Positions 10,035 through 37,247 of a stretch of DNA of 64,000 nucleotides are shown in pieces. This stretch comes from Rhodospirillaceae bacterium (GTDB taxonomy: Bacteria; Pseudomonadota; Alphaproteobacteria; Azospirillales; Azospirillaceae), in NCBI GenBank assembly GCA_037147415.1, contig JBAWVF010000004.1, positions 1,112 through 65,111 on the forward strand, given 5' to 3'. Position numbers and translations under genes: made by a program. The notes below the pieces were generated by a model. That model saw nothing but the letters and a program-made list of their open reading frames with translations, did no database searches and was not told the DNA's origin. The first letter of the stretch is position 1, and the number at the start of each line of letters is the position of its first letter.

Positions 10035-10048
10035 GCAGGCGTTCGCTG

Positions 10049-10582
10049 ATGAAGACGCTTTATTTACTGCGACATGCGAAGTCGTCATGGAATAATCCGA
10101 ATGTACCGGATCGGCTGCGTCCGCTGTCGGGCCGCGGGAGACGCGCTTCAGCTCTGATCGGCCGGTATTTACAAAATTCAAATGATAATATTCAGTCTGT
10201 CGTGTCCTCTCCGGCCCGCCGGGCGGTTGATACCGCTAACTTAGTGTTGGACGCAATCGATGGTGCACCGTTATTGCAGCAGGATGAAAGTCTTTACTTT
10301 GGCGGATGGCCTGCTTACTTGGATGTTATACATTCTTTGCCCGATTCGGTTGATCGTGCTCTGCTGGTCGGCCATGATCCGGACATCCATAGTTTGGTTT
10401 TGAAACTCGCCGGGCTCGGAACGGATAAGGCGTTGGGCGCACTGGCCGAGAAATTTCCGACCGGAGCGTTGGCCGTGCTCGAATTCGCAGGTTCCGACTG
10501 GGGGGATATTGTCCCCGGCACGGGCCACCTTCGCGCCTTTATCCGTCCGCGCGACCTAAGTCTTCAACGCTTTAAAGCTTAA
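10049..10582 (+). CDS. Histidine phosphatase family protein, SixA-like
   Basis: MKTLYLLRHAKS contains the RHA/RHG catalytic motif, with a second His motif in LLVGHDPD. The 177-aa size fits SixA-type phosphohistidine phosphatases. Confidence 0.8.
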   Translation: MKTLYLLRHAKSSWNNPNVPDRLRPLSGRGRRASALIGRYLQNSNDNIQSVVSSPARRAVDTANLVLDAIDGAPLLQQDESLYFGGWPAYLDVIHSLPDSVDRALLVGHDPDIHSLVLKLAGLGTDKALGALAEKFPTGALAVLEFAGSDWGDIVPGTGHLRAFIRPRDLSLQRFKA

Positions 10583-10691
10583 CATTGTAATGTTTTGTGT
10601 CTAAAATGCTGATGACAGCGCGCCTTTTGTGATCTATGTTCCGCCGATGTCTTCAACCTTCCGCTGACTGTTTTGATCGGAGTCGTAAAAG

Positions 10692-14186: not shown

Positions 14187-15530
14187 ATGAATAAGCTCGA
14201 CGATTTTATCAAGACCCGGCAAATCACCGAGGTTGAGTGTCTGGTTCCCGATATGTCCGGGATTGCCCGCGGCAAGATTGTTCCCGCAGAGAAATTTTTG
14301 CGTATTCTGCGTGACCGCGGGTTACGTCTGCCTGAATCGATTTTCGTGCAGACGGTGACCGGCGATTTTCCCGAAGATGATGACGTTACCAGCAATGAAA
14401 ACTCCGACATCTATATGGTGCCGGACGAAAACACCATCCGTATGCTGCCTTGGTATACCGAGCCGACGGCTCAGGTGATCAGCGACTGCTATTATGCTAA
14501 TGGCAACCCGGTTAATATTTCACCGCGCTGGGTGCTGCGCCGGGTGCTGGAGCTTTACGAGGAGCGCGGATGGCGCCCGATCGTCGCACCCGAGCTGGAA
14601 TTCTTTTTGGTCCAGGTCAACAAAGACCCCGATTATCCGTTGCTGCCGCCGGTCGGGCGCTCGGGTCGGACCGAAAGCGGGCGTCAAGCTTACGGTATTG
14701 ACGCCGTTAATGAATTCGATCCGATCTTTGAAGATGTTTATGATTTCTGTGAAGCCCAGAATATCGATATCGATACGCTGACTCATGAAGCCGGAGTTGC
14801 TCAAATCGAGATTAACTTCAATCATGGTGATGCGCTGGAACTGGCTGACCAGACCTTTCTGTTTAAGCGTACGGTGCGCGAGACTGCCATTCGTCATCAG
14901 GTTTATGCGACGTTTATGGCCAAGCCGATGCAGGATCAGCCGGGAAGTGCGCTTCATATTCACCAAAGCGTAGTTGATAGCAAAACCGGGCGTAATTTGT
15001 TCTCTGATTCTGAGGGCACTGACACGCCATTGTTCATGTCTTATATTGCCGGCCTGCAAAAGTTTTTGCCCGCATCGATGCCGTTATTTGCACCCAATGT
15101 TAATTCTTATCGCCGATTACTGCCAGGCTCGGATGCCCCGATCAATGTGCATTGGGGGCGCGATAATCGCACGGTCGGTTTTCGGGTGCCGGTTTCGGAG
15201 CCGGATTCGCGCCGGGTTGAAAATCGGGTGGCCGGCGCGGATGCCAACCCCTATCTTGCGCTCGCCGCTTCGCTCGCGTGCGGCTATCTCGGCATGATTA
15301 ATGAGATGGAGCCGTCCGATCCGATCAAGGGCACCGCGCACCGACTGGCCTTCACGCTGCCGCGCCACCTGATGGACGCACTCAACAAGTTCAACGCCTG
15401 CAAGCCCCTGCGCGAAGTAATCGGTGAAAAATTCATGGATGCCGTGACCGCAGTCAAGACCAGCGAATATGAAGCCTATCAGCGGGTGATCAGCTCGTGG
15501 GAGCGAGAAAATCTGCTGCTGAATGTGTAA
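14187..15530 (+). CDS. Glutamine synthetase family protein (GlnA-like/gamma-glutamyl-polyamine synthetase type)
   Basis: Supporting motifs are VAPELEFFLV, HEAGVAQIEINF, TFMAKPM..PGSALHIHQSV, NSYRRL and NRVAGADANPYLA. Alternative starts lie at 14163 and 14181. Confidence 0.9.
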   Translation: MNKLDDFIKTRQITEVECLVPDMSGIARGKIVPAEKFLRILRDRGLRLPESIFVQTVTGDFPEDDDVTSNENSDIYMVPDENTIRMLPWYTEPTAQVISDCYYANGNPVNISPRWVLRRVLELYEERGWRPIVAPELEFFLVQVNKDPDYPLLPPVGRSGRTESGRQAYGIDAVNEFDPIFEDVYDFCEAQNIDIDTLTHEAGVAQIEINFNHGDALELADQTFLFKRTVRETAIRHQVYATFMAKPMQDQPGSALHIHQSVVDSKTGRNLFSDSEGTDTPLFMSYIAGLQKFLPASMPLFAPNVNSYRRLLPGSDAPINVHWGRDNRTVGFRVPVSEPDSRRVENRVAGADANPYLALAASLACGYLGMINEMEPSDPIKGTAHRLAFTLPRHLMDALNKFNACKPLREVIGEKFMDAVTAVKTSEYEAYQRVISSWERENLLLNV

Positions 15531-15546
15531 TATAACCGTGCTCGGC

Positions 15547-15572
15547 ATCTGTCCGATGATTTTCGGACAGAT
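15547..15572. terminator. Bidirectional hairpin between convergent genes
   Basis: atctgtccga-tgattt-tcggacagat forms a perfect 10-bp stem. It fills the 43-bp gap between the stops at 15530 and 15574. Confidence 0.55.
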
Positions 15573-15573
15573 A

Positions 15574-17646
15574 CTAGCAGCGGTTATATGCACATTCTAG
15601 ATGTTGTTTAAGGCGTTCTTGGAGTCCGGCAACGGTTGAATGGTAAATTCGCTCCATATCATCAATCATTGTTTCGAGGACGCCGGTGCCGGGAGCTTTG
15701 TTAAGACTGGTGGCGAATCTTGACATGCGTTGAGCCCCGAGATTGCTGGCGTCCCCGTTCAATCTATGGGCGGATTTCCGCAGTGCGTCGCGGTCGCCTG
15801 CCAGCCAGGCCGATTTAATCTCTTGAACCGCTTCCCCCATCGCGACCGGCAGGCTGATGAGCAGAGTACGGAATTCATCTTCGCCTAGAAAATCACAGAG
15901 TTCCCTGATCTGGACTTCATCAAATAAGGGTTCATTCTCATGGGGCTGGTTTTGGTCGAATTCTATGTCCGACCGGGCCGGGACAAGGTCACCGGCCTCG
16001 ATGAGCAGGTCGCTGAGCTTCCATGTCTGCTCCGGGTGCTTGAGAGTCCGGGTGATGGTCCGCAGCAAAGACTTCGCCGTATAGGGTTTGGTAATGTGCT
16101 CGTTCATGCCGGCGGCTAGAATTTGCTCCCGCTGTTCGCGGATACCATGCGCAGTAACCGCAATAATTGGCACGGTGGCCTGCGGTATAGCGAGTCCTCG
16201 AATTATTTTGGCTGTGGTAATGCCATCCATCACGGGCATTTGAATATCCATCAACACCAAATCAAAAGTATCAGCTTGTAATGCATCAAGCGCCATCTGT
16301 CCGTTTTCGACACAGACGGTGCTGTGACCGGCCTTGTGTAATACAGCTTTAATAATAGTTTGATTGATTATGCTGTCTTCGGCCACTAAAACCCGAAGCG
16401 GCGCTTGAAAGTTATCTTCCTCTACAAGAAGAGCGTGGTCTTTATTCTCGACATATCCGGAGCTGCATGGAATTGAAATCCGGAAGGTACTGCCGGATCC
16501 GGCCGTACTGTCAAGTTCAATGGTTCCCCCCATTAATTCACACAGTTTCTTTGAAATAGCCAATCCCAAGCCTGCGCCCCCGAAGCTCCGGGTGAAAGAG
16601 GAGTCTGCTTGAGTAAAGCTTTCGAATATTGCGGATTGGGATTCCGCCGGAATACCGATCCCGGTATCTGCTACGACCAGTCGAAGCTCGCCGGAACATG
16701 CGCTCGGTACATAATCAACCTCGACCCTGATACTGCCCTGTTCGGTAAACTTAATGGCATTCCCGACAATATTAAAAATTATCTGGCGAATTCTGGTGGA
16801 GTCACCGGACAAAATCTGCGGAACATTATCGCGAATGTCTGTTATAAATTCCAGTGTCTTGCGATCGGCCTCAAGCTTCAGTAAGGACAGGGCTTCGCCG
16901 ATAATAGTTGTTGTGCTGAAGTCATCTATATATAATTTGAGTCTTCCGGTTTCACATCTTGAATAATCAAGAATGTCGCTTATAATAGTTTGAAGGCTGT
17001 GCGCAGCATTATCGACAACTGTTGCATATTTTCGTTGAGTATCATTTAGATCGGTATTGAGAAGTACCTCAGTCATGCCGATGATCCCATTCATCGGTGT
17101 GCGAAGTTCATGACTCATCATTGCCAGAAAATCGGATTTAGCGCGGGTTGCCGCCAGCGCGGCATCGCGGGCCTGAACCAGATCGCGATTGGTGGCTTCA
17201 AGCTCGGCGGTGCGTTCGCACACCCGCTTTTCCAGATAAGTATTGAGATAATTGACCGCGTCGGTCTGGAATTTCAGGGTCAAATGGGCTTTGACCCGGG
17301 CGCGCAGGATCGGCGGGCTAATCGGTTTGGTAATAAAATCAACAGCACCAAGCTCTAATGCCCGAGTTTCATAGTCGATATTCGAATGAGCTGTAACGAA
17401 TATAACCGCACCTTCTTTAGTGGCCGGGTTGGATTTCAGGGCGGCACAGACAGCAAAGCCATCCATCACCGGCATTTCGGCATCTAAAAGAATAATATCG
17501 GGTTTTTTTTCTTCAGCAATCCGCAGCGCCTTCTCGCCATTGGTCGCGAAAAATAGCATCGCTTGTCCGGCCAGGATATCGCTCATCAACCGAATGGTGG
17601 TCAGGTCATCGTCGATGATCAGCAGGCGGGGGCGGGTGATGGTCAT
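15574..17646 (-). CDS. Hybrid sensor kinase: REC-HisKA-HATPase_c-REC-HPt
   Basis: The N-terminal receiver is [26 protein letters not shown]. The H-box is [14 protein letters not shown]. Kinase boxes are [19 protein letters not shown] and GGAGLGLAI. The second receiver is [24 protein letters not shown], and the HPt motif is [13 protein letters not shown]. Confidence 0.92.
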
Positions 17647-21933: not shown

Positions 21934-23061
21934 ATGGTTAAGACGCTTTCGTTCGGTACGGTCCTTGTCGCGGGTGCTTTGCTGGCGGCCCCGGTTTCGG
22001 CTGAGCCCGCCGTCACCGTCGGTGCCATCGAGATTCTGTCCGGGCCGAGCGCCGCCTACGGCACCGCGATCAAGGCCGGGCTGGAACTGGCGTTGGCAGA
22101 GATCAATGCGGCCGGCGGTGTTCTCGGCGGCCGGAAGCTGGAGCTGGTGATCGAGGACTCGGCGGGCAACAAGGATCAGGCGGTCAATGCCGCGCGCCGG
22201 CTGATCGGACAGAACAAGGTGCCGGCCATCATCGGCCCGACCCTGTCCAACGAGATGTTCGCGGTCGGCCCGGTGACCAATGAGCGTAAGGTGGTCACCA
22301 TCGGCACCTCGAACACCGCCAAGGGCATTACCGATATCGGGCCTTATATTTTCCGGACTTCGCTGCCGGAAGCGGATGTGGTGCCGGTGACGCTGGCGGC
22401 GGCCCGCGACAAGTTCGGGGTCAAGACCATCGCGATGATGTACGCCAACGACGACGCCTTCAGCAAATCGGGTTTCGACTCGATGAAGGCGGCGGCGGAC
22501 AAGCTGGGCCTGACCATTGCCGCCATCGAGAGTTTTAGCGGCAAGGATACCGATTTCTCGGCTCAGCTGACCAAGATCAAGGGGCTGAAGGTCGATGCCA
22601 TCACGGTCTCGGCGCTGGTCGAGCCGACTTCGGGCGTGGTGTTGCAGGCCCGTCAACTCGGCATTCCCGCCAGCATCCGTTTTATCGGCGGCAACGGCGC
22701 CAATTCACCCAAGCTGGGCGAGATTGCGGGCGAAGCGGCCGATGGTTTGCTGGTCGGCAGCCCGTGGTTCATCGCCAAACCCGATCCGGCCAATCAGGCC
22801 TTCGTCGCCGGTTTTAACAAGAGCTATGGCAAAGATCCGGACCAATTCGCGGCTCAGGCCTATGATACCTTGCATATTTTGGCCAAGGCGATTGATCGGG
22901 CCGGCAACACCGACAGCGACAGTATCCGTGAATCCTTGTTGAAGACGTCTTATACCGGCGTGATCGGACCGTTCAGCTTCACCGCCGGCCGGGATCCGGC
23001 CTCGACCGAAGGCGTGGTGGTGTTGACCATGCAGGGCGGCAAGTTCCAGATTCTGAAGTAG
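21934..23061 (+). CDS. Branched-chain amino acid (LIV-type) ABC transporter substrate-binding protein
   Basis: A signal peptide is followed by VTVGAIEILSGPSAAYGTAIKAGLELALAEINAAGGVLGGRKLELVIEDSAGN, a typical LivK/LivJ-family N-lobe. Confidence 0.9.
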   Translation: MVKTLSFGTVLVAGALLAAPVSAEPAVTVGAIEILSGPSAAYGTAIKAGLELALAEINAAGGVLGGRKLELVIEDSAGNKDQAVNAARRLIGQNKVPAIIGPTLSNEMFAVGPVTNERKVVTIGTSNTAKGITDIGPYIFRTSLPEADVVPVTLAAARDKFGVKTIAMMYANDDAFSKSGFDSMKAAADKLGLTIAAIESFSGKDTDFSAQLTKIKGLKVDAITVSALVEPTSGVVLQARQLGIPASIRFIGGNGANSPKLGEIAGEAADGLLVGSPWFIAKPDPANQAFVAGFNKSYGKDPDQFAAQAYDTLHILAKAIDRAGNTDSDSIRESLLKTSYTGVIGPFSFTAGRDPASTEGVVVLTMQGGKFQILK

Positions 23062-23069
23062 CGGTTACG

Positions 23070-23951
23070 ATGCTGCTTCAGCAACTCGTCAACGGGCTGG
23101 TGTTGGGGTCAACCTATGCGCTGTTCGCGCTGGGTTTTACCCTGATCTTCGGTGTACTGCGCATTATCAACCTGACCTACGGCTTTTACTTTTCGGTTGG
23201 GGCCTTCGTTGCGCTATGGCTGGCGCGCTCGGTCGGGGCTTCGGTCTGGCTGGCCTTGCCCGGCGGCGCGCTGGCGGCCGGGTTGGTGGCGGTGGTGCTG
23301 GATAGCCTGCTGCTGACCCGGTTGCGCCATGCCAAGGCGGGAGAACTGTCCTCGCTGATGGTGACCTTGGGCGCGGTGCTGGCGCTCTATTCCGCGATGG
23401 CGGCGCTGTTGGGCACGGAAATCCGGCGCTTTCCCTTCGGCTTTGTCGGCTCGGCGGCGCTGGAGGCGGGCGGGGTTCGGCTGTCGCTGGTGCAGATTGT
23501 GATTGTCGGCACCGCGTTCACCCTGGCGGCGCTGTTGTTCCTGGTGCTGCGCTATAGCCGGCTTGGTTTGATGATCCGGGCGCTGGCCGAGAATGAAGAC
23601 GTCGCCCGCTTGATGGGCATCGATGTTGATGCCATGGTGGTTGCGGTTTCGTTTCTGTCGGGGGTTCTGGGCGGGACCGCCGGCGTGCTGCTCGGGCTGA
23701 ATTTCAACGCGATTCAGCCCTTCATGGGCGAGGCCATGATGCTGCGCGGCTTTGCCGTCATCATCATCGGCGGCTTGGGCGATGTTCGCGGCGCCCTGGT
23801 CGCCGGGGTGACGCTGGGCGTGCTGGAGGTGCTGACCGCAGGCTATGTCTCCTCCAACGCCAAGGAGGCGGTCGGCTTCGCGATTCTGGTGCTGACCTTG
23901 TGGCTGCGCCCGGTCGGTCTGTTCGGCCGCGCGGCCATAAAGCGCGCGTGA
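23070..23951 (+). CDS. livH: Branched-chain amino acid ABC transporter permease LivH-type
   Basis: MLLQQLVNGLVLGSTYALFALGFTLIFGV is a LivH N-terminus. The C-terminus LWLRPVGLFGRAAIKRA is the canonical LivH ending. Confidence 0.92.
   Translation: MLLQQLVNGLVLGSTYALFALGFTLIFGVLRIINLTYGFYFSVGAFVALWLARSVGASVWLALPGGALAAGLVAVVLDSLLLTRLRHAKAGELSSLMVTLGAVLALYSAMAALLGTEIRRFPFGFVGSAALEAGGVRLSLVQIVIVGTAFTLAALLFLVLRYSRLGLMIRALAENEDVARLMGIDVDAMVVAVSFLSGVLGGTAGVLLGLNFNAIQPFMGEAMMLRGFAVIIIGGLGDVRGALVAGVTLGVLEVLTAGYVSSNAKEAVGFAILVLTLWLRPVGLFGRAAIKRA
23858..23919. repeat. Direct repeat copy 1 (inside the livH 3' end)
   Basis: The 62 nt cgccaaggaggcggtcggcttcgcgattctggtgctgaccttgtggctgcgcccggtcggtc are identical to 24368-24429. 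Weaker similarity continues for about 10 nt (ttcggc). Confidence 0.9.
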
Positions 23952-24367
23952 AGCCGGTCTTGACTCGCCGCCCCCGTTCGCGGCAGACTGCCAAGCGGCC
24001 GAACCGAGCGTAACACCCGCCCGGCCCGGCCTGATCATTATCATCCCGACGACGAAAGACGACAATGACTGTCGCGACTCTTATCACGGGCGCGCGTTCA
24101 CGCACAGCCCCCCGTTGCAAACCGGACCCGCCTGATCGCGTCTCGGATAGCGTTCCCATGTGAACGCTGACTGAAGGTGCGCGGGCGGTTCCCTGTCTTG
24201 CGTCGTCACGTCACCGGAGCCTTGACAAAAAGATGGGGGCGACCGGAGCGGAACGTTGCGTGTGCGGGCGAACCCGGTTTCAGAGGGATCGGAAGTCGAA
24301 GGTGCGGTGCCCGTGAAGCCCTGCGCCGCCGCCCGTGCGCCGCCGATTCCCCCTTTCACCTGGGGCT

Positions 24368-24429
24368 CGCCAAGGAGGCGGTCGGCTTCGCGATTCTGGT
24401 GCTGACCTTGTGGCTGCGCCCGGTCGGTC
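24368..24429. repeat. Direct repeat copy 2 (ectopic copy of the livH 3' end)
   Basis: Perfect 62-nt match to 23858-23919, located 510 bp downstream of copy 1. Confidence 0.9.
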
Positions 24430-24500
24430 CATTCGGCGGACGCTTCTTCTCGACTGAAAAATGTCCATGGGCTAAAATCGAAACACCAGGTGAGGCATAG
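24368..24500 (+). pseudogene. Orphan livH 3'-end fragment (duplicated tail with divergent ending)
   Basis: It encodes KEAVGFAILVLTLWLRPVG, then a non-LivH tail (PFGGRFFSTEKCPWAKIETPGEA). No upstream LivH sequence is attached. Confidence 0.6.
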
Positions 24501-24512
24501 CCTGACCTGGTG
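24484..24512. other. Near-perfect palindromic hairpin upstream of the Abi-like gene
   Basis: The sequence is caccaggt-g-aggc-ata-gcct-g-acctggtg, located 78 nt upstream of the ATG at 24590. It has no T-run. It could be an operator, a transcription stop or an RNA element. Confidence 0.4.
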
Positions 24513-24589
24513 CTCTGGGAACTATGTTGGCGGCGCATAGCAAAGCCAGTGGGGCCGATCAACTGCTCAACCAAACAATAGGCGAGTGA

Positions 24590-25663
24590 ATGGCGGAAAG
24601 TCAAGTCCCATACCCCAACCATGCCTATCAGATCACCGCTCTGCGATCAGCGCTCTCCGAACCGAGATTTAAGGCCTATCTCGCGAAAGGCGGTTACGAC
24701 GAGCAGTACGCTCTGGCTCTGTATCTCTACAATGTCAGGGTTGCCAAAGCCTTTATGTTCCCGCTCGGGGTCGCGGAAGTCACATTGCGCAACGCGATTG
24801 ATAAGAGGTTTGTCGATGTCTACGACAAGAACTGGCACAGGGATCTGCGCGTTCGGGATTCGGTGCTGACCCCGGAGAGCTTGAACGCGCTCGACAAAGC
24901 CATCACTCGTGCCGGAAACAACGCCGACCACGGGCAGGTGGTCGCCGAGTTGACATTTGACTTCTGGTCAAACTTACTGCGGCCTGACTATGGCTCATTC
25001 TGGCGAACGAACCTCAACATCGTCTTTCCGAATATCCAGCGCGGCAGGTTGCGTCACGATGTTCAGTTAATGGTCAAGGAAATCAACGTCTTCCGCAATC
25101 GGGTCGCCCACCATGAACCGGTTTTAGACCGCAATATCACAGACATTCACGCAAAAATAGTCGAGATCGTGTCGCTGCGATGCAAAGAAACAGCAGCTTG
25201 GCTCAAGCATCACTCCACAGTGAGTGCGGCTATCCGGACTCGGCCACACGGACCGGCCGCCGGATTTATGTCACTGCGCGACCGGATGGCTCGAGACTTC
25301 GTAAAGGTTCTGGGAACGACCAAACTTGACAGCCTTGCCAGCAGCTTCGATCATACCAAGCAAGCTGCCGTTCGCATAGACAGCGTTGGCGCACCGACGG
25401 CAGCTTTTGGCCCCCTTGAACTGGTCAGCTTCGTATCCCTTGACCTCCAAAAGAACGGTGGCATTACAATGCTTGCCGAGCGAACTGTTGATGATCTTTT
25501 CACCGCGATCAACGTGGCGGGAAGCTGGATTCCGATGGATGAAAGCACGCCGCTGGCCGAAGCCATCGATGCCCTGAAGCAGCAAGGAACGAACATCATC
25601 GTCGGAGTGGATGCCCAGGGTAGAGCCGTTGGGGTGCTGACGCGCGCTTGGCGCCGGTACTGA
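24590..25663 (+). CDS. Abi_2 (AbiD/AbiF-like, HEPN) domain protein with C-terminal CBS pair
   Basis: Abi_2 hallmarks are LSEPRFKAYL, ALALYLYNVRVAKAF, EVTLRNAI and AELTFDFWSNLL. INVFRNRVAHHEPV carries the HEPN Rx4H motif (R169..H174, nt 25094-25111). Residues about 225-357 read as two CBS repeats, for example RTVDDLFTAINVAGSWIPMDESTPLAEAIDALKQQGTNIIVGVDAQGRAVGVLTRA. Confidence 0.85.
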   Translation: MAESQVPYPNHAYQITALRSALSEPRFKAYLAKGGYDEQYALALYLYNVRVAKAFMFPLGVAEVTLRNAIDKRFVDVYDKNWHRDLRVRDSVLTPESLNALDKAITRAGNNADHGQVVAELTFDFWSNLLRPDYGSFWRTNLNIVFPNIQRGRLRHDVQLMVKEINVFRNRVAHHEPVLDRNITDIHAKIVEIVSLRCKETAAWLKHHSTVSAAIRTRPHGPAAGFMSLRDRMARDFVKVLGTTKLDSLASSFDHTKQAAVRIDSVGAPTAAFGPLELVSFVSLDLQKNGGITMLAERTVDDLFTAINVAGSWIPMDESTPLAEAIDALKQQGTNIIVGVDAQGRAVGVLTRAWRRY

Positions 25664-25729
25664 GGCCAATCATTCAGACAATGTCCGCTTTCCGACGCCG
25701 CCGTTGGTCTCGTCAATAGCCGCCACGGA

Positions 25730-25754
25730 CCCGAACCGGACCGTCCGGTTCGGG
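25730..25754 (+). terminator. Strong hairpin downstream of the Abi-like gene
   Basis: cccgaaccgga-ccg-tccggttcggg forms a perfect 11-bp stem 67 nt after the stop. There is no T-run. Confidence 0.4.
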
Positions 25755-25862
25755 GACCCGCTGGAGCAGCGGATTTCAAACCGAGACACGACTCTGATGG
25801 CCGGAGACTCGCAAGTCGAGCGGAAGTAGGGTATTCTGAGCTGGAACGACGGAGAAGACCCC

Positions 25863-26075
25863 ATGTCCGACGACGAACTGAAGGCGATGCTGGTTAAGCT
25901 GGTCGCCAAGATCGATGAGGAAGCGGCCAGGAATGCCGACTTCCGCGCCGGTGTGGACAGTCAATTGGCCTGTATCAACGCCCGCCTCACCGGCATCGAC
26001 AAGCGCCAGGATGACCAGAACGCCATTCTTGCCGCAATGATTCCGGTCAAAATTGCCGCTGTCGGTGGACGATAG
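25863..26075 (+). CDS. Small hypothetical protein (70 aa), predicted coiled coil
   Basis: The ATG is preceded by GGAGAAG with a 5-nt spacer. The sequence is helical and charged (MSDDELKAMLVKLVAKIDEEAARNADFRAGVDSQLACINARLTGIDKRQDDQN). The stop lies 5 nt before the livM ATG. No known family is recognised. Confidence 0.45.
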   Translation: MSDDELKAMLVKLVAKIDEEAARNADFRAGVDSQLACINARLTGIDKRQDDQNAILAAMIPVKIAAVGGR

Positions 26076-26080
26076 GGGCT

Positions 26081-26923
26081 ATGGCGGCTTGGCTGGATAA
26101 TTTTTTCTTTACCTACGAGACGCTGATTCATTCCTTGGGCGTCAACGGCTTGCTGGCGCTGTCGATGTATTGCGTGCTCGCGCTCGGGCAATTGTCGCTG
26201 GGGCAGGCGGCGTTCATGGGCATCGGCGCCTATACCGGGGCGTTGCTGACACTGAAGGCCGGGCTGCCATTCTGGTCGGTGCTGCCGCTGGCGACACTGG
26301 CTCCGGCGCTGGTGGCGCTGATTATCGGCGGGCCGACCTTGCGTCTCAGCGGGGTTTATCTGGCGATTTCGACCATTGCACTGGGGGAGGTGCTCCGTAT
26401 CTTCTACATCAACGCGGAGTCGATCACCGGCGGCGCGCTGGGTCTGTCGGGAATTCCGCGGCTGGCCGGTCCGGGGCTGATTTACGGGCTGTTGCTGGTA
26501 GCCATGCTCGGGTTTTGGCTGGTGGGTCGCTCGCGCATCGGCCGGGCGATGGAGGCCATGCGCGAAGACGAGGTTGCGGCCGGGGTGATGGGGATCAACC
26601 CGCCGCTGTATAAGCTGGGCGCGCTGGTGGTCTCTGCGATGCTGGCCGGGCTGGCCGGCTGTCTGTCGGCGCATGGCAACAGCTTCATCGGTCCGAACGA
26701 GTACGGGTTCGAGACCGCGGTCACCATCCTCAGCTTCGCCCTGCTCGGCGGTATCGGCTCGCCGGTGGCGCCCGTGCTCGGGGCGATCGTGCTGACCGCG
26801 CTGCCCGAACTGTTGCGGCCGTTGCAGGATTTCCGCCTGGTGCTGCACGGGCTGATCATCGTCATGGCGGTGCTGTTTCTGCCCGGCGGTATTCTGCCGT
26901 GGCGCTTGAGGCGGGCGCCATGA
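26081..26923 (+). CDS. livM: Branched-chain amino acid ABC transporter permease LivM-type
   Basis: Polytopic membrane protein. GQLSLGQAAFMGIGAYTGALL is the LivM motif. The stop overlaps the livG start. Confidence 0.9.
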   Translation: MAAWLDNFFFTYETLIHSLGVNGLLALSMYCVLALGQLSLGQAAFMGIGAYTGALLTLKAGLPFWSVLPLATLAPALVALIIGGPTLRLSGVYLAISTIALGEVLRIFYINAESITGGALGLSGIPRLAGPGLIYGLLLVAMLGFWLVGRSRIGRAMEAMREDEVAAGVMGINPPLYKLGALVVSAMLAGLAGCLSAHGNSFIGPNEYGFETAVTILSFALLGGIGSPVAPVLGAIVLTALPELLRPLQDFRLVLHGLIIVMAVLFLPGGILPWRLRRAP

Positions 26924-27687
26924 CGGTGTTGCTGCAAACCCGGTGCCTGACCATGCGGTTTCAAGGCTTGCTCGCGGTCGATGCGGTCGAACTGGAGGTC
27001 ACGGCCGGCGAGGTCCACGGCCTGATCGGACCCAATGGCGCCGGCAAGACCACGGTCTTTAATTTAATCTCCGGTTTGCTGCACCCGACCTCCGGCGGGG
27101 TGGTGCTTGACGGGCACGATGTTTCCGGCTTGCCGTCTCATGCGCGGACCCGGCTCGGGCTGGCGCGCACCTTTCAAAACATCCGGATGTTCGCCGACAT
27201 GACGGTGCTGGAAAACGTCATGACCGGCATGCACTCCCGGCTGAAGGCTTCGGTGGCGGCGGTGCTGCTGCATTTGCCCGGTGTGCGGGCGGAGGAGCGG
27301 GCGGCCAAGGCCCAGGCGCTGGAGTTGCTGGAATTCGTGGCGCTGGCCGATAAGGCGGGGCTGCGCTCCGGTGATTTGTCTTATGGCGAACAAAGGCGGC
27401 TGGAGATCGCGCGGGCGCTGGCGGCGGAGCCGCGGTTATTGCTGCTGGACGAGCCGGCGGCCGGGATGAACCCGGCGGAGACCGACGAGCTGGCGCTGTT
27501 GTTAAAGCGGCTCGGGCCGCTCGGGGTGACTTTGTTGGTGATCGAGCATGACATGGGCTTCATTCTGGATTTGTGCGACCGGATCACCGTACTGAATTTC
27601 GGCTGCAAGATCGCCGAGGGCCGACCGAACGAGATTCGCAACGACCCGGCCGTGATCGAGGCTTATCTGGGGACGCACCTGCAATGA
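26920..27687 (+). CDS. livG: Branched-chain amino acid ABC transporter ATP-binding protein LivG-type
   Basis: Supporting motifs are GLIGPNGAGKTT, LSYGEQRRLEIARAL and LLLLDEPAAGMNP. ATGA overlaps occur with both livM and livF. Confidence 0.92.
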   Translation: MTVLLQTRCLTMRFQGLLAVDAVELEVTAGEVHGLIGPNGAGKTTVFNLISGLLHPTSGGVVLDGHDVSGLPSHARTRLGLARTFQNIRMFADMTVLENVMTGMHSRLKASVAAVLLHLPGVRAEERAAKAQALELLEFVALADKAGLRSGDLSYGEQRRLEIARALAAEPRLLLLDEPAAGMNPAETDELALLLKRLGPLGVTLLVIEHDMGFILDLCDRITVLNFGCKIAEGRPNEIRNDPAVIEAYLGTHLQ

Positions 27688-28415
27688 CCGCACCGACGCC
27701 GTTATTGCAGGTCTCCGGTCTTCGCTTGGGCTATGGCCGGATCATGGCGGTCAAGGGCATCGATCTCGAGGTGCCGGCGGGCGGGGTGGTTTGTCTGATC
27801 GGGGCCAACGGTGCCGGCAAGACCACGACCATGCGCGGCTTGTCCGGGCTGTTGCGGGCCATCGACGGCCGGATCTGCTTCGACGGCACCGATATCACCA
27901 AGAGCGCGGCGCATCGCATCGCTCGTCTGGGGATCCGCCACGTTCCGGAAGGACGGCAGGTTTTCGCCGAAATGTCGGTGGCGGAAAACCTGGCGCTCGG
28001 CGGTTTGCAGGCGCCAAGCTCCCGCGTGTATCAGGAGCGGCGGGAGCGGGTGCTGGAGCGCTTTCCCCTGTTGCGTCAACGGCTGGCGCAATCGGCCGGT
28101 TTGCTCTCGGGCGGCGAACAGCAAATGCTGGCGTTGGCACGGGCGTTGATGGGGGCGCCGCGCTTGTTGTTGCTGGACGAGCCGAGCATGGGGCTGGCGC
28201 CGCTGTTCGTCGAGGAAATCTTCCGCATTATCACCGCGTTGAAGCGCGAGGGCACCACCATTCTGCTGGTTGAACAGAACGCCCGGGTCGCGCTGGAAAT
28301 TGCCGACCATGCCTATGTTCTGGAAAGCGGACGCATTGCCTTGCACGGGCCGGGACCGGAGATTATGCATAACCCACAAGTCGTTGCCGCCTATCTCGGC
28401 GGTTCGAACAAATAA
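27684..28415 (+). CDS. livF: Branched-chain amino acid ABC transporter ATP-binding protein LivF-type
   Basis: Supporting motifs are LIGANGAGKTTT, LSGGEQQMLALARAL and LLLLDEPSMGLAP. The start was trimmed from ORF position 27573 to the ATG overlapping the livG stop. Confidence 0.92.
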   Translation: MTAPTPLLQVSGLRLGYGRIMAVKGIDLEVPAGGVVCLIGANGAGKTTTMRGLSGLLRAIDGRICFDGTDITKSAAHRIARLGIRHVPEGRQVFAEMSVAENLALGGLQAPSSRVYQERRERVLERFPLLRQRLAQSAGLLSGGEQQMLALARALMGAPRLLLLDEPSMGLAPLFVEEIFRIITALKREGTTILLVEQNARVALEIADHAYVLESGRIALHGPGPEIMHNPQVVAAYLGGSNK

Positions 28416-28438: not shown

Positions 28439-29611
28439 ATGGGCACACAAAAATCACCGCGCACCGCGACGGTTGCCGGCGTACTCCTTGCCGCGTCTTT
28501 GCTCGGGAGCGGGGCGGCAACGGCGGCCGAGCCGGCCGGTCCGATCAAGATCGGGTCTTTCCTGTCGGTGACCGGCGGCGCCTCTTTCCTGGGCGATCCG
28601 GAAAAGAAGACGCTGGAGTTGGAGGTCGCCGAGATCAACAAGCGCGGCGGTGTCCATGGCCGTAAACTCGAGCTGATCACTTATGATGACACCGGCGCCG
28701 CCGACAAGGCGGCCAGCTTCGTCAAGCGGTTGATCGAAAGCGACGGCGTCGATGCGATCGTCGGCGGCAGCACCACCGCCACCACCATGGCGGCGATTCC
28801 GCTGGTGGAAAAGTCCCGGGTGCCGTTCATCTCGCTGGCCGGCGCGGTCGGGATTGTCGAGCCGGTTAAGAAATGGGTGTTCAAGACCCCGCATACCGAC
28901 CGGCTGGCCGCAGAAAAAGTTTTCGAGGATATGCGCAAGCGCGGCATCAAGCGGATCGGCCTGATTTCGGAGGACGCCGGTTTCGGCAAGTCCGGGCGCG
29001 AGCAATCCCTGCTGGTGGCCAAGAATTTCGGCATCGAGATCGTGGCTGACGAGGTTTATTCACCGAAAGACCCCGACACCACGGCGCAATTGACCAAGAT
29101 CAGCCACACGCCGGGGGTTGAGGCTTTATTTAACTTCGGTTTCGGGCAGGGACCGGCGGTGGTGACCCGCAATTACCGCCAACTCGGTTTGACCATGCCG
29201 TTCTATCAGTCGCACGGGGTTGCCTCGAAGGACTTCATCAAGCTGGTCGGCGCGGCCGGAGAGGGCATCCGTCTGCCGGCGACCGGGCTGGCCGTGGTCG
29301 ACCAATTGCCGGCCGGGGATCCGCAAAAGCCGGTGGTGACCATGTATATGGAAGTCTATCGCGATACCTATAAGGCCGATGCCTCGACCTTTGCCGGCTA
29401 TGCTTATGATGGCATCCACATTCTTGAGGAAGCGCTGTTCCACGCTACGGGCACCGACAAGGAGCGGGTGCGCGAGGAAATCGAACGGACGCGCGGCTTT
29501 GTCGGCACGACCGGACTTTACACCATGTCGCCGACCGACCATAACGGGCTGGCGCCGAACTCCTTCCATATGGTCGAAATCCGGAAGGGCGATTGGGCGT
29601 TGCTTGATTAA
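28439..29611 (+). CDS. LIV-type ABC transporter substrate-binding protein (second operon)
   Basis: A signal peptide is followed by IKIGSFLSVTGGASFLGDPEKKTLELEVAEINKRGGVHGRKLELITYDD. GGGAGAG lies upstream of the ATG. Confidence 0.9.
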   Translation: MGTQKSPRTATVAGVLLAASLLGSGAATAAEPAGPIKIGSFLSVTGGASFLGDPEKKTLELEVAEINKRGGVHGRKLELITYDDTGAADKAASFVKRLIESDGVDAIVGGSTTATTMAAIPLVEKSRVPFISLAGAVGIVEPVKKWVFKTPHTDRLAAEKVFEDMRKRGIKRIGLISEDAGFGKSGREQSLLVAKNFGIEIVADEVYSPKDPDTTAQLTKISHTPGVEALFNFGFGQGPAVVTRNYRQLGLTMPFYQSHGVASKDFIKLVGAAGEGIRLPATGLAVVDQLPAGDPQKPVVTMYMEVYRDTYKADASTFAGYAYDGIHILEEALFHATGTDKERVREEIERTRGFVGTTGLYTMSPTDHNGLAPNSFHMVEIRKGDWALLD

Positions 29612-29629
29612 CCGCGGGCCGGGCCGGGA

Positions 29630-30505
29630 ATGTCGTCGCAGTTTCTCCAATATCTGTTTTCCGGGGTTACGGTCGGGGCGATTTATGCGCTGGCCGGGCT
29701 CGGGTTTACGATCATCTACAATGCCAGCCATGTGATTAATTTCGCTCAGGGCGAGTTTATCATGATCGGCGCCATGACCACGGTGTCTTTGACCGGGCTC
29801 GGTGTGCCGCTGGTGGTGGCGGTGCCGCTGGCGGTGCTGGTGACCATGGCGGTCGGGGTGGCGGTGGCCCGCTTCGCCATCCTGCCGGCGCGCGAGGCGT
29901 CCGTGGTGACCCTGATCATCATTACCATCGGCGTCTCGATGATTCTGCGCGGGACGGCGCAGGTGTTGTGGGGCAAGGGCTACCATGCCCTGCCGTCCTT
30001 CAGCGGCGACACTCCCTTTGTCGTGGCGGGCGCGGCGCTGCTGCCGCAAAGCCTGTGGGTGCTCGGCTGTTCCGTGGTGGTGATTGCCGGGCTCGGCTGG
30101 TTTTTCGGCCGCACCCTGTACGGCAAGGCGATGCTGGCGACTTCGTGCAACCGGCTGGCGGCGCGTCTGGTCGGGATCGAGGTCTCAGGCGTGCTGCTGG
30201 CGGCGTTCGGGCTGGCGGCACTGCTCGGCGCGGTCGGCGGCATCGTGATGGCGCCGATCACCTTCACCGCAGCCGATTCCGGTATCATGCTCGGGCTGAA
30301 GGGCTTTGCCGCGGCGGCGCTCGGCGGGCTCGGCAATGGCGCGGGTGCGGTGCTTGGCGGGCTGATCCTGGGCATTTCCGAGGCGATGAGCGCGGGCTAT
30401 CTGTCCTCGTCCTATAAGGAGGCGACCGCCTTCGTCATCATCCTGCTGGTGCTGTTCTTCCGGCCGAACGGCTTGTTCGGACGTGCGGGAGCGGAACGGG
30501 TATGA
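29630..30505 (+). CDS. LivH-type permease (second operon)
   Basis: N-terminus is FLQYLFSGVTVGAIYALAGLGFTIIYNAS. C-terminus is FFRPNGLFGRAGAERV. Confidence 0.9.
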   Translation: MSSQFLQYLFSGVTVGAIYALAGLGFTIIYNASHVINFAQGEFIMIGAMTTVSLTGLGVPLVVAVPLAVLVTMAVGVAVARFAILPAREASVVTLIIITIGVSMILRGTAQVLWGKGYHALPSFSGDTPFVVAGAALLPQSLWVLGCSVVVIAGLGWFFGRTLYGKAMLATSCNRLAARLVGIEVSGVLLAAFGLAALLGAVGGIVMAPITFTAADSGIMLGLKGFAAAALGGLGNGAGAVLGGLILGISEAMSAGYLSSSYKEATAFVIILLVLFFRPNGLFGRAGAERV

Positions 30506-31442
30506 CCGAGTTCGGGACGCGCCATGGCGGGGTGATCGCGCTGGCGGTCATGGTCGCGCTGCTGCCGCTCGGGCTGCCCGACCTTTATACCTATGACATT
30601 GCGATCAATGCCGGCTTCAACGCCATCGTGTGCGTCGGCCTGAACCTGTTGATCGGCTATGCCGGTCAGATCAGCCTGGGCCACGCCGGTTTTTTCGGGC
30701 TCGGCGCATATGCTTCGGGCATTCTGACCACCCGCTACGGCTGGCCCCCGCTGGCGGCGCTGGCGGCCGGAGCGGTCGGGGTGGCGGCGCTGTCCTGGCT
30801 GGTGGCGCGGGCGGTGCTTGGGCTCAAGGGCCATTTCCTGGCGATGGCGACCATGGGGGTCGGCATTATCGTTGCGATCGTGCTCAACACGGAATCGGGG
30901 CTGACCGGCGGCTCGGACGGGCTGATGGTCGGCGATTTCTCGGTGTTCGGTTTGGTCTTGCGCGGTGAGCGCGCCTGGTACTGGGTGGTCGGCGGTCTGC
31001 TGGTGCTGGTGATCGCCGCCGCCGGTAATCTGATCGACTCGCCGGTCGGGCGCGCCTTGCGTGCGCTCCACGGCAGCGAGATCGCGGCCGAGGTCGCCGG
31101 CATCGATACCGCACGCACCAAAATCATGGTGTTCGTGCTGTCGGCCGTGCTGGCGGCGATTGTCGGCAGTCTTTACGTTCACTATGCCGGCATGATCACG
31201 CCGAGCCGGGCCGGCTTCATGAAATCGATCGAGTTGGTGACCATGGTCGTGTTCGGCGGCATGGCCTCCAGTTTCGGCGCGCTGGTCGGGGCGGTGTTTC
31301 TGACCGTGCTGCCGCAGGTATTGACCGCGTTCGAGGATTACGAGACGATTATTCTGGGTGTGATCATGGTCGGCACCATGATTTTCATGCCGCGCGGACT
31401 GGTGGTGACCCTGCGCGACCTGCTGCGGATCGGGAGACGGCC

Positions 31443-31446
<4 letters not shown>
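30502..31446 (+). CDS. LivM-type permease (second operon)
   Basis: The GQISLGHAGFFGLGAYASGIL motif is present. A 4-nt overlap occurs with the neighbour on each side. Confidence 0.9.
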
Positions 31447-32201
<755 letters not shown>

Positions 32202-32204
32202 GCG

Positions 32205-32909
32205 ATGCTGTTGGACATTTCCGATCTGACCAGCCATTACGGCCGCCTTCAGGCGCTGCGGGGGATTTCGCTGACGATCGGGCAAGGCGAGCTGATCGCC
32301 CTGATCGGGGCCAACGGCGCCGGCAAGACCTCGCTGTTGCAGGCGATATCGGGCGTGCGTGCGGTCAGCGGCGGGCGCATGCGGTTCGAGGGTCGCGATC
32401 TCGCCGGCTTGGCGCCCGAGCGGCGGGTCGATCTCGGCATCGTCCAAGTGCCCGAGGGCCGGCAGGTGTTCGCATCGCTCAGCGTCGAGGATAATCTGAG
32501 GCTGGGCGCCTATCGTCGCCGCGACCGTGAAATCGCGGCCGATCTTGCCCGCATGATCGAGCTGTTTCCGGTGCTGGGGCGCTATCGAAACCTTACCGCC
32601 GGCAGTCTGTCGGGCGGGCAACAACAAATGCTGGCGCTGGCCCGCGGTTTGATGGCGCGGCCCCGGCTGCTGCTGCTCGACGAGCCGAGCATGGGGTTAT
32701 CACCGGTACTGGTCGCCGAAGTCTTTCAAGTCATCGCGGATTTGAGGCGGGCCGGCACCACCATTTTCCTGGTCGAGCAAAACGCCCGCTCGGCGCTGGC
32801 GATTGCCGACCGCGCCTATGTCATCGAAACCGGTGCCGTCGTGCTGTCGGGCAGTGGTGCCGGGTTACTGGCCGACGACCGCGTGCGTACCGCTTATCTG
32901 GGGTTGTGA
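32205..32909 (+). CDS. LivF-type ATP-binding protein (second operon)
   Basis: Supporting motifs are LIGANGAGKTS, LSGGQQQMLALARGL and LLLLDEPSMGLSP. Confidence 0.9.
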   Translation: MLLDISDLTSHYGRLQALRGISLTIGQGELIALIGANGAGKTSLLQAISGVRAVSGGRMRFEGRDLAGLAPERRVDLGIVQVPEGRQVFASLSVEDNLRLGAYRRRDREIAADLARMIELFPVLGRYRNLTAGSLSGGQQQMLALARGLMARPRLLLLDEPSMGLSPVLVAEVFQVIADLRRAGTTIFLVEQNARSALAIADRAYVIETGAVVLSGSGAGLLADDRVRTAYLGL

Positions 32910-36972: not shown

Positions 36973-37247
36973 GGGAGGCGTCTCGTCAGCTGGAAGAGGG
37001 GGCGGCTGGAAAAGGAAGCGGCTGGAAAGGGCATGACTGTCATAAAGGCTCGCCCCCTGGGCCGCTGTCAAGCGTTCAGGTGGCTTCGAAGGCGGTCGGC
37101 GGTATATCGTCGAAATGATCGGCCCGCACCGCCGCAAGACGGTCCCGACCCGGCCGGGCGATTGTTACGCTCGGTTCCGGTCACTAAATAGCTTGCCGTG
37201 AACCGGGCCGGCTGTCAGACCGGTGTTTGAGCCAATCCGGAGGGATC

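Follow-up and report, generated by a model that had tools for sequence, protein, structure and literature searches.

A HEPN-CBS gene with a conserved, covarying leader RNA inside a liv operon of a Rhodospirillaceae bacterium: a candidate AbiF-like module with an added CBS pair

The HEPN toxins of the AbiD/F group have recently been recognised as toxin-antitoxin systems that are neutralised by RNA, and as likely ancestors of Cas13. Here we compare with them a gene found in 64,000 nucleotides (nt) of a Rhodospirillaceae bacterium (assembly GCA_037147415.1, contig JBAWVF010000004.1, positions 1,112 to 65,111 of the forward strand), a stretch which as a whole we call the window. The gene, at positions 24590-25663 of the window, appears to encode a HEPN domain followed by a CBS (Bateman) pair, and a structured leader RNA precedes it. 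AbiF is a type III toxin-antitoxin system, in which the active site of the HEPN dimer is occluded by an upstream non-coding RNA (ncRNA) that binds to it, called AbiFr, or RCd22 in C. difficile (PMC12737573, PMC12373285). In lactococcal systems of the AbiD/F group, conservation is higher in the upstream sequence than in the genes, which are tolerated only when that sequence is present, and abiD1 is under translational control via its mRNA leader (PMC13064643).

HEPN and CBS domains on one polypeptide have also been described. Anantharaman et al. in 2013 predicted fusions of HEPN domains of the Abi2/Swt1 clade with CBS domains, and proposed ligand-regulated RNA cleavage or stability (PMC3710099). 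DS-11 (WP_000257686.1) is a single-protein CBS + HEPN phage defence system of E. coli, validated by DefensePredictor in 2025/26 (Science 2026); its defence is abolished by the CBS mutation Y157A and by the HEPN mutations R330A or H335A, and its authors concluded that the nuclease is under the control of the CBS domain, through an unknown adenine derivative which that domain binds (PMC13092281). PD-T4-5, a plasmid-borne distant relative of AbiF/D, gives an abortive-infection (Abi) phenotype against T4 (Vassallo et al. 2022, PMC9519451). The HEPN-CBS concept is known and partly validated. The first-pass annotation of the window, which knew of no characterised architecture of this kind, overstated its novelty in view of the 2013 fusions, the validated DS-11, and the many plasmid copies of this very family that are already annotated 'Abi family protein'. 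What is new is a family with the HEPN domain first and the CBS pair second, ending in an RxHRRY-COOH tail, and coupled to a conserved and uncatalogued RNA.

The locus resembles PbAbiF-AbiFr (8VZ6) and AbiFCd-RCd22 in combining a HEPN toxin candidate that carries the RNxxxH motif with a structured upstream RNA on the same strand. It has mobile-element carriage in common with the AbiD/F group, and we also liken it to those systems for their upstream region, which is more conserved than the gene. It differs from AbiF in the extra C-terminal CBS pair of ~135 aa, and its leader differs from AbiFr in layout, having a long P1 hairpin and a P2 helix with a conserved internal loop, and not matching the Rfam abiF motif RF03085. 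Since AbiD/F toxins are neutralised by an upstream ncRNA and a conserved leader is found here, our best reading is that RNA and protein here form an AbiF-like toxin-antitoxin or abortive-infection module, to which the CBS pair would add a further nucleotide or dimerisation input. We give this reading a probability of roughly 0.6. RNase activity, toxicity, neutralisation by the RNA, ligand binding and a phage phenotype are all properties that we infer for it. The features upstream of the gene are as follows.

24450-24478, forward strand: predicted sigma-70-like promoter from a consensus scan (TCGACT, 17 nt, TAAAAT), ending ~6 nt before P1
24484-24589, forward strand: structured leader of ~105 nt, a candidate AbiFr-like ncRNA and antitoxin; 112.6 bits with covariance model R1
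24484-24512, forward strand: helix P1, CACCAGGUGAGGC-AUA-GCCUGACCUGGUG, 11 pairs (24484-24495 with 24501-24512)
24526-24563, forward strand: helix P2, in which 24526-24530 and 24532-24536 pair with 24552-24556 and 24559-24563

The evidence for the leader comes from 18 full-length homologs, alpha- and gammaproteobacterial, whose upstream 120 nt we aligned. The RNAalifold consensus of this alignment consists of two helices with 20 pairs, and we observe compensatory double substitutions in 12 of them: 8 of the 11 pairs of P1, where 99% of the cells are paired, and 4 of the 9 pairs of P2, where 97-98% are. Overall, 98.3% of the cells are paired, compared with 86.2% in column shuffles of the alignment, and none of 500 shuffles reaches the observed value. 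Cells that have changed on both sides number 48, when 15 are expected. As a control, sliding the 3′ partners by 1-3 columns leaves 0-1 covarying pairs. The pairs also include eleven G-U cells, which on the opposite strand would be A-C mismatches, and therefore the structure belongs to an RNA of the coding strand and not to a DNA palindrome. P2 encloses a variable mini-hairpin and a nearly invariant CCAGUGGGGCC, and a conserved CUGCU lies just 3′ of it, at 24563-24567. A possible third mini-helix (P3) is plausible by eye in the P2 loop, a variable loop that is not aligned in register. The alignment further shows a conserved A-rich, -10-like segment at the promoter position, while the ribosome-binding region falls outside the conserved structure and varies among loci. 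The leader is a conserved, covarying, uncatalogued RNA structure on the coding strand.

We built a covariance model, R1, from the 18-sequence alignment. Immediately before the ATG, R1 reaches 89-119 bits at all the main-clade full-length homologs scanned, and it also finds two plasmid loci outside its training set, with 110.8 bits on an Agrobacterium pTi (locus L171) and 105.2 bits on the Rhizobium plasmid pRspN324c (L172). The leader accompanies the gene in unrelated contexts, such as Agrobacterium Ti plasmids, defence islands and gammaproteobacterial loci. Weaker scores, of 32-36 bits, are found upstream of two divergent full-length homologs (L014, L015) and of two stand-alone relatives of 210-220 aa (L018, L063). 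Because a related hairpin stands before some stand-alone genes, the RNA partner looks ancestral, predating the CBS fusion, and the CBS pair looks like the later addition. Only the main CBS-fused clade has the extended P2 region with its invariant CCAGUGGGGCC.

In known-family searches, Rfam 15 has no match anywhere in 23500-26500, and a relaxed scan of 24420-24620 at E ≤ 10 returns only chance miRNA and snoRNA matches. The abiF motif was not found at gathering score in 14 related loci. The classical type III systems (ToxIN, CptIN, TenpIN) have upstream tandem RNA repeats, and the leader here, like the AbiF RNA, consists of one structured unit; a search with Tandem Repeats Finder (TRF) and a repeat search found no ToxI-like tandem repeat array between 24368 and 24590.

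The protein that follows this leader has these parts.

24590-25663, forward strand: HEPN-CBS protein gene, intact, 357 aa, with the stop codon counted in the coordinates; its first possible start codon is the start of the open reading frame (ORF)
24590-25249, forward strand: putative HEPN domain of the Abi_2, AbiD/F and PD-T4-5 clade, aa 1-220, all-helical
25094-25111, forward strand: predicted catalytic Rx4H motif R169-N-R-V-A-H174, from conservation and alignment with the Csm6 motif
25274-25453, forward strand: predicted CBS repeat 1, aa 229-288, from the family profile and the AlphaFold2 secondary structure
25475-25660, forward strand: predicted CBS repeat 2, aa 296-357, from Pfam CBS over aa 317-352 and Foldseek
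25643-25660, forward strand: family signature R-A-W/H-R-R-Y-COOH, at the end of CBS repeat 2

A search of a large protein collection finds 277 homologs at E ≤ 0.001. Among the 120 matches listed, most are full length (~357 aa), those named by organism are Alphaproteobacteria, one in a Rhodospirillaceae metagenome-assembled genome (MAG) is identical, and several carry the names 'Abi family protein' or 'CBS domain-containing protein'. We aligned 35 full-length homologs of 45-82% identity to measure conservation. The motifs that had been associated with Abi_2 are LSEPRFKAYL (residues 22-31), ALALYLYNVRVAKAF (41-55), EVTLRNAI (63-70), AELTFDFWSNLL (119-130) and INVFRNRVAHHEPV (165-178). Invariant residues in the alignment are E63, R67, N68, D124, W126, S127 and N128, then R169, N170, R171, A173, H174, H175, E176 and P177, and finally R352, R355, R356 and Y357 at the extreme C-terminus. 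R169 and H174 sit inside an essentially invariant FRNRVAHHEP, beside which the EVxLRN motif is also invariant in the homologs, and the Rx4H motif is invariant both in the 35 full-length homologs and in 26 broader ones. The ratio dN/dS of nonsynonymous to synonymous substitution rates for this ORF against three homologs is 0.10-0.26, similar in both halves, and so both domains are under purifying selection.

Several searches place the N-terminal half in the Abi_2/AbiD/F clade of HEPN domains, and we take this assignment, which is drawn from profiles and predicted structure, to be right. Pfam Abi_2 (PF07751) is found at E < 0.01 in 35/35 homologs, with a best value of 2.7e-7. The PADLOC model PD-T4-5 matches the protein itself with E 6.1e-14 and 50 bits (best-scoring stretch aa 106-185, against positions 118-211 of the 309 in the model) and 26/26 of the broader relatives (best 1.5e-19); 25/26 of the latter also match AbiD (best 2.6e-10). 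PD-T4-5 is the best defence-model match of the protein, and, like it, a HEPN-core system of a single gene on a plasmid, the comparison being with the PADLOC model. In the profile of the HEPN half, LRNRIAHHEP aligns to the catalytic LRNKVAH of the Csm6 HEPN domain. The AlphaFold2 model of the N-terminal half alone has a predicted local distance difference test score (pLDDT) of 89.8 and a predicted template-modelling score (pTM) of 0.84, and in the full-length model residues 12-215 are all-helical. The sole confident Foldseek match of the N-terminal model in the PDB is 8vz6_A, 'PbAbiF dimer bound to ncRNA' (probability 1.00, query-normalised template-modelling score 0.52), with all remaining matches at probability 0.21 or less.

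The C-terminal half is predicted to fold as a complete CBS pair. The full-length AlphaFold2 model, made with the family alignment (pLDDT 88.5), has pLDDT ~90 over aa 229-351, where it forms two beta-alpha-beta-beta-alpha units. A Foldseek search of the PDB with the full model gives 95 matches at E ≤ 1e-3. CBS-domain proteins make up all 50 of those listed, many being whole Bateman modules and several having AMP, ATP or S-adenosylmethionine (SAM) bound. Against 2p9m, 2ef7, 2nyc and 3kpb, the target-normalised template-modelling score is 0.67-0.75 and the root-mean-square deviation (rmsd) is 2.6-3.3 Å over 125-132 columns. The family profile matches CBS proteins of the PDB at positions 230-286 (repeat 1, E 5e-6), and repeat 2 is also matched. 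On profile and model evidence, then, the protein has a HEPN domain of the Abi_2 clade and, after it, a genuine CBS pair. This agrees with the first-pass annotation, which had read Abi_2/HEPN motifs with an intact Rx4H dyad (R169 and H174, nt 25094-25111) and two CBS repeats at residues ~225-357: each motif that it quoted is found where it was placed, the Rx4H dyad is invariant in the homologs, and the predicted structures compare with 8vz6 PbAbiF for one half and with CBS modules for the other. Ligand gating by the CBS pair we infer.

For other databases, no NCBIfam model matches the 357-aa protein, and PHROGs has for it a single weak family match, the function of that family being unknown. 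We also observe that the two ends of the protein are strongly conserved: aa 1-10 (24590-24619; MAESQVPYP...) and aa 352-357 (25643-25660; (R/K)(A/S)HR(R/K)Y-COOH). This conservation spans most alpha- and gammaproteobacterial homologs, a Vibrio homolog (L013) being one exception, and the C-terminal tail is absent in the divergent L014 and L015. Being conserved and yet predicted to be disordered (pLDDT < 50), both termini suggest interaction sites that lie beyond the reach of a monomer model.

Several observations weigh against an AbiF-like module with a nucleotide input. Taken alone, the protein scores below the Pfam cut-offs for both halves, with 20.6 bits for Abi_2 (gathering score 25.6, E 6e-4) and 20.6 bits for CBS (PF00571; cut-off 24, E 5.9e-4, repeat 2 only). 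This was the hmmscan comparison that the first-pass annotation had proposed, and what supports its two families is the set of homologs, with Abi_2 in 35/35 and CBS in 15/35. The resemblance in fold to PbAbiF is moderate (E 0.038, rmsd 10.3 Å over 308 columns), and 8vz6 was not retrieved from the PDB by sequence profiles, either full or N-terminal, which gave only CBS proteins and the Csm6 motif. Within the CBS pair, the ribose-binding motif of repeat 1 is AAFGPLE instead of the AAFTxxD of most relatives, so that G274 and E277 replace their Thr and Asp; repeat 2 reads GV(I/L)xRA(H/W)RRY, with His/Trp for Asp (W354 here, His at that position in most relatives), and lacks the last helix. With these positions substituted, canonical adenosine binding is uncertain. 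As for the RNA, R1 reaches only 17.7 bits at one Xanthomonas/Stenotrophomonas homolog (L046, 130-230 nt upstream) and finds nothing at another (L047); unlike RCd22, there is no obvious terminator from leader to ORF. The leader has no match to RF03085 even at E ≤ 10, which leaves AbiFr-like as a candidate assignment. Finally, a bulk scan of 12 genome loci gives a mixed picture of neighbours, with prophage structural genes, TrbL, RepC, transporters and housekeeping genes, and few defence genes.

The absence of a terminator can also be read in favour of a different explanation. In this alternative the protein is a purely ligand-gated HEPN RNase that has no RNA antitoxin, and the leader is a cis-acting 5′ untranslated region, resembling the abiD1 leader or a riboswitch. 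Leader and ORF adjoin each other and nothing like a terminator separates them, abiD1 is translationally controlled via its mRNA leader (PMC13064643), and conserved unpaired elements such as CCAGUGGGGCC and CUGCU are typical of ligand- or protein-binding cis-regulators too. DS-11 was reported as a one-protein system, with CBS Y157 and HEPN R330 and H335 each needed. Such a proposal has difficulty with the CBS-less HEPN proteins L018 and L063, whose related upstream hairpin indicates that the RNA is older than the fusion, and with a sole confident structural neighbour that is an AbiF-ncRNA complex; and the variable ribosome-binding region, lying outside the conserved structure, is a poor fit to simple sequestration of that site. 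We consider this alternative unlikely. The first-pass annotation came close to it by treating the protein as a stand-alone ligand-gated enzyme, which missed the conserved structured RNA upstream, and RNA is the known primary regulator of AbiD/F (PMC12737573, PMC12373285, PMC13064643).

How close is DS-11 itself? Each has, on one polypeptide, a CBS pair and a Swt1/Abi2-like HEPN domain with the Rx4H motif, and both are remotely similar to PD-T4-5. DS-11 also shows that such a protein can protect against phage and depends on both of its domains, the logic that we propose for the present family. But the domain order of DS-11 is reversed (an N-terminal extension, CBS at 134-241, then HEPN with R330/H335), no upstream RNA has been reported for it, and an hhalign comparison with our family gives a probability of 0.4% and E 0.16 over only 47 columns of the HEPN core, which contain the LTF..W and RN..H..P motifs. 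Given the reversed order and no detectable overall homology, the sequences read as two independent, convergent fusions. When the Providencia homolog (L010) was used in a DNA search, which cannot reach distant relatives, no copy of the present family turned up in E. coli. The examples from 2013 (alr3009 and Pelobacter gi 118580987, HEPN-CBS(-HD)) have an active HEPN and CBS as here, and are set apart by their description, with other partners (HD), no RNA partner, and no link to AbiD/F proper. As in Csm6/Csx1 (CARF-HEPN, type III CRISPR), the HEPN RNase here would be gated by a nucleotide sensor in the same protein, and the catalytic motifs align; the Csm6/Csx1 sensor is a CARF domain that binds cyclic oligoadenylates and not a CBS pair, and no association with CRISPR is seen here.

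If the locus is an AbiF-like module, we can propose how it might work. The promoter would produce the ~105-nt structured leader RNA and then the HEPN ribonuclease. The leader, or a processed form of it, would bind the HEPN dimer and block the composite Rx4H active site, and for that reason the gene would be tolerated by the cell. The C-terminal CBS pair would be a second input, most likely a ligand of the adenine-nucleotide type and/or control of HEPN dimerisation. RNA cleavage, with growth arrest or abortive infection, would be freed only when infection or loss of the mobile genetic element (MGE) upsets the RNA:protein balance and/or the nucleotide pool.

A stricter version of this mechanism is a two-key ribonucleoprotein: with an AbiFr-like RNA sitting in the HEPN active site and the CBS pair reading a nucleotide signal, both would have to change before the RNase fires. 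Candidate signals are such as the ATP/ADP/AMP balance, Ap4A, or an adenine derivative made or depleted by a phage. The invariant basic RxHRRY-COOH tail may assist, and the extended P2 with CCAGUGGGGCC, which we find in the main CBS-fused clade, could couple the RNA to the CBS domain or to the tail. We offer this version tentatively, as a possibility well short of even odds.

We now turn to where the family is found. HEPN-domain relatives in species-representative genomes number more than 557; the best 80 of them are mostly stand-alone proteins of ~220 aa that match residues 15-219 only. No CBS remnants were found downstream of the stand-alone 220-aa relatives, which are therefore true single-domain proteins. 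The HEPN-CBS form occurs in Alphaproteobacteria, Oceanospirillum, Providencia, Pseudomonas, Vibrio, Xanthomonas and Stenotrophomonas. The genomic location differs in every homolog examined, as these neighbourhoods illustrate.

Closest homolog (88% identity): adjoins a Shedu gene
Homolog of 82% identity: adjoins a HEPN_Toprim_N gene, with HsdR 9 kb away
Sphingosinicella homolog: adjoins AbiEii and a methylase/HATPase pair
Homolog of a rhizobial lineage: type III CBASS at 5 kb
Homolog of 70% identity: its contig looks like a plasmid and also carries a McrB-type AAA_5 ATPase gene, an N6/N4 methylase, ParA and a resolvase
PLSDB: full-length copies on 63 plasmids, among them 177-kb Agrobacterium Ti plasmids, where the position is fixed
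pTi copy: near a tyrosine recombinase, a RES toxin and a PLD-like gene
pRspN324c copy: near Gabija-like, AbiJ, HNH and PLD genes

The HEPN-CBS gene is accessory and mobile, and linked to mobile elements and defence genes. As for the proposal of the first-pass annotation to test homolog neighbourhoods for enrichment in defence genes, such genes are repeatedly adjacent, and the 12-locus bulk scan, being mixed, does not amount to a clean enrichment. These plasmids bring up another explanation, in which the module serves plasmid or island addiction by post-segregational killing, with little or no phage defence, and the copy in the window is a stranded remnant. The 63 full-length plasmid copies in PLSDB with their conserved position on Agrobacterium Ti plasmids would fit, and so would a window copy that lacks a recombinase and is flanked by fragments of mobile origin, and a Rhodospirillum centenum copy that an insertion sequence (IS) splits after codon 10. 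The repeated defence neighbours (Shedu, CBASS, AbiE, Gabija-like, HEPN_Toprim_N) speak against it, as does the phage resistance given by PD-T4-5, AbiD/F and the analogous DS-11 (PMC9519451, PMC13064643, PMC13092281). Addiction and defence are compatible roles and not mutually exclusive; addiction with little or no defence we judge quite improbable.

In the R. centenum SW homolog (L001:8597-11068, CP000613) the IS carries DDE_Tnp_1. The leader RNA and MAESQAPYPD are found at 8597-8747, the gene body at 10001-11068, and the 8-nt TCCAGATC at both ends. The split means that the annotated N-terminus (MDSKPCPD...) is artificial and that the toxin is uncoupled from its leader. In the plasmid subclade, a conserved 188-aa ORF precedes the HEPN-CBS gene, and in L171:8093-9703 and L172:8093-9703 a 405-aa PLD-like gene starts 16 bp after it and is followed by a 130-aa ORF. 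This arrangement, absent from the window, may be a larger operon in that lineage. Near a stand-alone AbiF-like gene of Xanthomonas cissicola, at a distance of 2.6 kb, there is a C4 antisense RNA (L051:1774-1866; Rfam RF01695, 66.9 bits). C4 antisense RNAs are typical of the immunity regions of P1/P7-type phages, and a prophage context is indicated for this gene.

In the window, the gene sits in an insertion between livH and livM, with the following parts.

23070-23951, forward strand: livH, intact, the left flank
23858-23927, forward strand: 70-nt repeat copy 1 at the 3′ end of livH (direct repeat D3), running on into the normal LivH C-terminus
23952-24367, no strand assigned: spacer X, 416 bp from the livH stop codon to the livH duplicate, 65.9% GC
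24368-24429 (repeat to 24437), forward strand: copy 2, a duplicate of 62-70 nt of the livH 3′ end, with a GTC microhomology to the cassette at 24427-24429
24425-25703, forward strand: conserved mobile cassette of ~1.28 kb by blastn limits, made of promoter region, leader RNA, ORF and a ~40-nt 3′ tail
25863-26075, forward strand: orf70, 70 aa, coiled-coil-like, within the insertion and outside the conserved cassette, just upstream of livM
26081-26923, forward strand: livM, the right flank

The limits of the cassette are those of nucleotide conservation, which by blastn begins ~165 nt upstream of the ORF (24425) and ends ~40 nt past the stop (25703). Identity over the cassette is 90.8% with L089, 80.3% with L002 and 70.3% with L090 (from ~24448), and L001 is matched in two pieces. 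The livH-livM gap is ~2130 bp here and 3-57 bp in 67 of 75 metagenomic relatives that have both genes; in the two closest (81-82% LivM identity) it is 21 and 6 bp. The HEPN-CBS gene is absent from the liv junction in 75/75 of these relatives, and no homolog examined sits between livH and livM. The GC content of the ORF is 55.7% (64.8% at third codon positions, GC3), compared with 64.9% for livH (GC3 83.3%) and 65.2% for livM (GC3 84.0%). The first-pass annotation had seen an insertion that splits a conserved operon, and this is borne out, as is the corollary that the gene is no fixed core gene at this position. The compositional difference that it noted is real, and the gap is smaller than its hand count of ~52% GC implied.

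CBS pairs are common sensors of cellular energy charge. One could propose, then, a housekeeping regulator of RNA stability that responds to nucleotides and takes no part in genetic conflict, along the lines of the ligand-responsive RNA stability suggested by Anantharaman et al. (2013, PMC3710099). A gene that is patchy, found at a different locus in each genome examined, on plasmids, in prophage regions and in defence islands, of atypical GC, and absent from the liv junction in 75/75 relatives with both genes, makes this very improbable.

The insert reads from its sequence as a composite of spacer X, the livH duplicate, the cassette and orf70. Copy 1 of D3 is 97% identical to 24368-24437, and the two mismatches of copy 2 (24430-24431) agree with the L089 cassette sequence. 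There is no recombinase gene inside the insert, and for this reason the cassette looks stranded; the window has no attachment site at a tRNA or tmRNA. A simple site-specific integration with a 70-bp duplication of the attachment (att) site was rejected, as cassette DNA and not the native livH end follows copy 2, and it is also countered by the 3-nt microhomology junction and the recombinase-free insert. An assembly artefact was judged unlikely, since a second NCBI contig has the same sequence throughout the region, with identity over 6.8 kb. The junction of the livH fragment with the cassette is confirmed independently by a Logan contig that starts at 24400, and the joint between X and copy 2 is supported by two assemblies that possibly share data.

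Spacer X resembles neither any Abi locus nor any of 80 related liv loci, and it has no Rfam or tRNA match. Its start (23954-24029) has 77% identity over 77 nt with the intergenic 37149-37223 on the reverse strand, 13 kb away; the shared stretch may be a terminator repeat or one like the repetitive extragenic palindromic (REP) elements. orf70 has only four homologs, of 52-68% identity, in MGE-rich contexts, and two of them share one 13.5-kb MAG contig with a resolvase, an IS1595 Zn-ribbon, AAA_25, and DUF4160/DUF2442. None of the 80 related liv loci has orf70, nor does any Abi locus, and because it is missing beside every other homolog it was rejected as a partner gene. Pfam finds nothing for orf70 or for the ORF 24177-24500, which spans copy 2.

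The window has two liv-type branched-chain amino-acid ABC transporter operons in tandem (21934-28415 and 28439-32909), of which only the first is interrupted. With the second operon uninterrupted, liv transport capacity is probably not lost. We find other insertions at the livH-livM junction of relatives (L126-L128, for example L127:3790-4992; L120:3621-5001; L144 and L147-L149). One is a 1.2-kb cassette of two ORFs (182 and 215 aa) with no Pfam or NCBIfam match, and the others are a 1.38-kb outer-membrane beta-barrel protein gene and a 227-bp spacer, so the junction may be a recurrent landing site. Elsewhere in the window, a low-GC stretch at 15500-17500 (46-50%), with a 690-aa ORF at 15574-17646 on the reverse strand beside a 1369-aa hybrid histidine kinase, may be another acquired segment.

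For genome annotation, this means that what interrupts the liv operon is a probable defence or toxin-antitoxin cassette that looks stranded and is no part of amino-acid transport. For the family, it means that the ideas of an RNA-neutralised AbiD/F toxin and of a CBS-HEPN defence protein, an architecture only just validated as defence, are united in one cassette of ~1.3 kb. The covariation in the leader makes direct experiments easy to design, and tractable hosts and phages exist, because the family is common on Agrobacterium Ti and rhizobial plasmids and is also present in Providencia, Vibrio, Pseudomonas and Xanthomonas. Rfam does not include the leader RNA, which could enter it as a new family. 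If the two-key reading were true, this would be the first nuclease of the AbiF/Cas13 lineage with small-molecule allosteric control, and its RNA a new class of uncatalogued motif. The main value of the finding is a well-supported new RNA motif, together with the prospect of a doubly regulated nuclease of the AbiF/Cas13 lineage.

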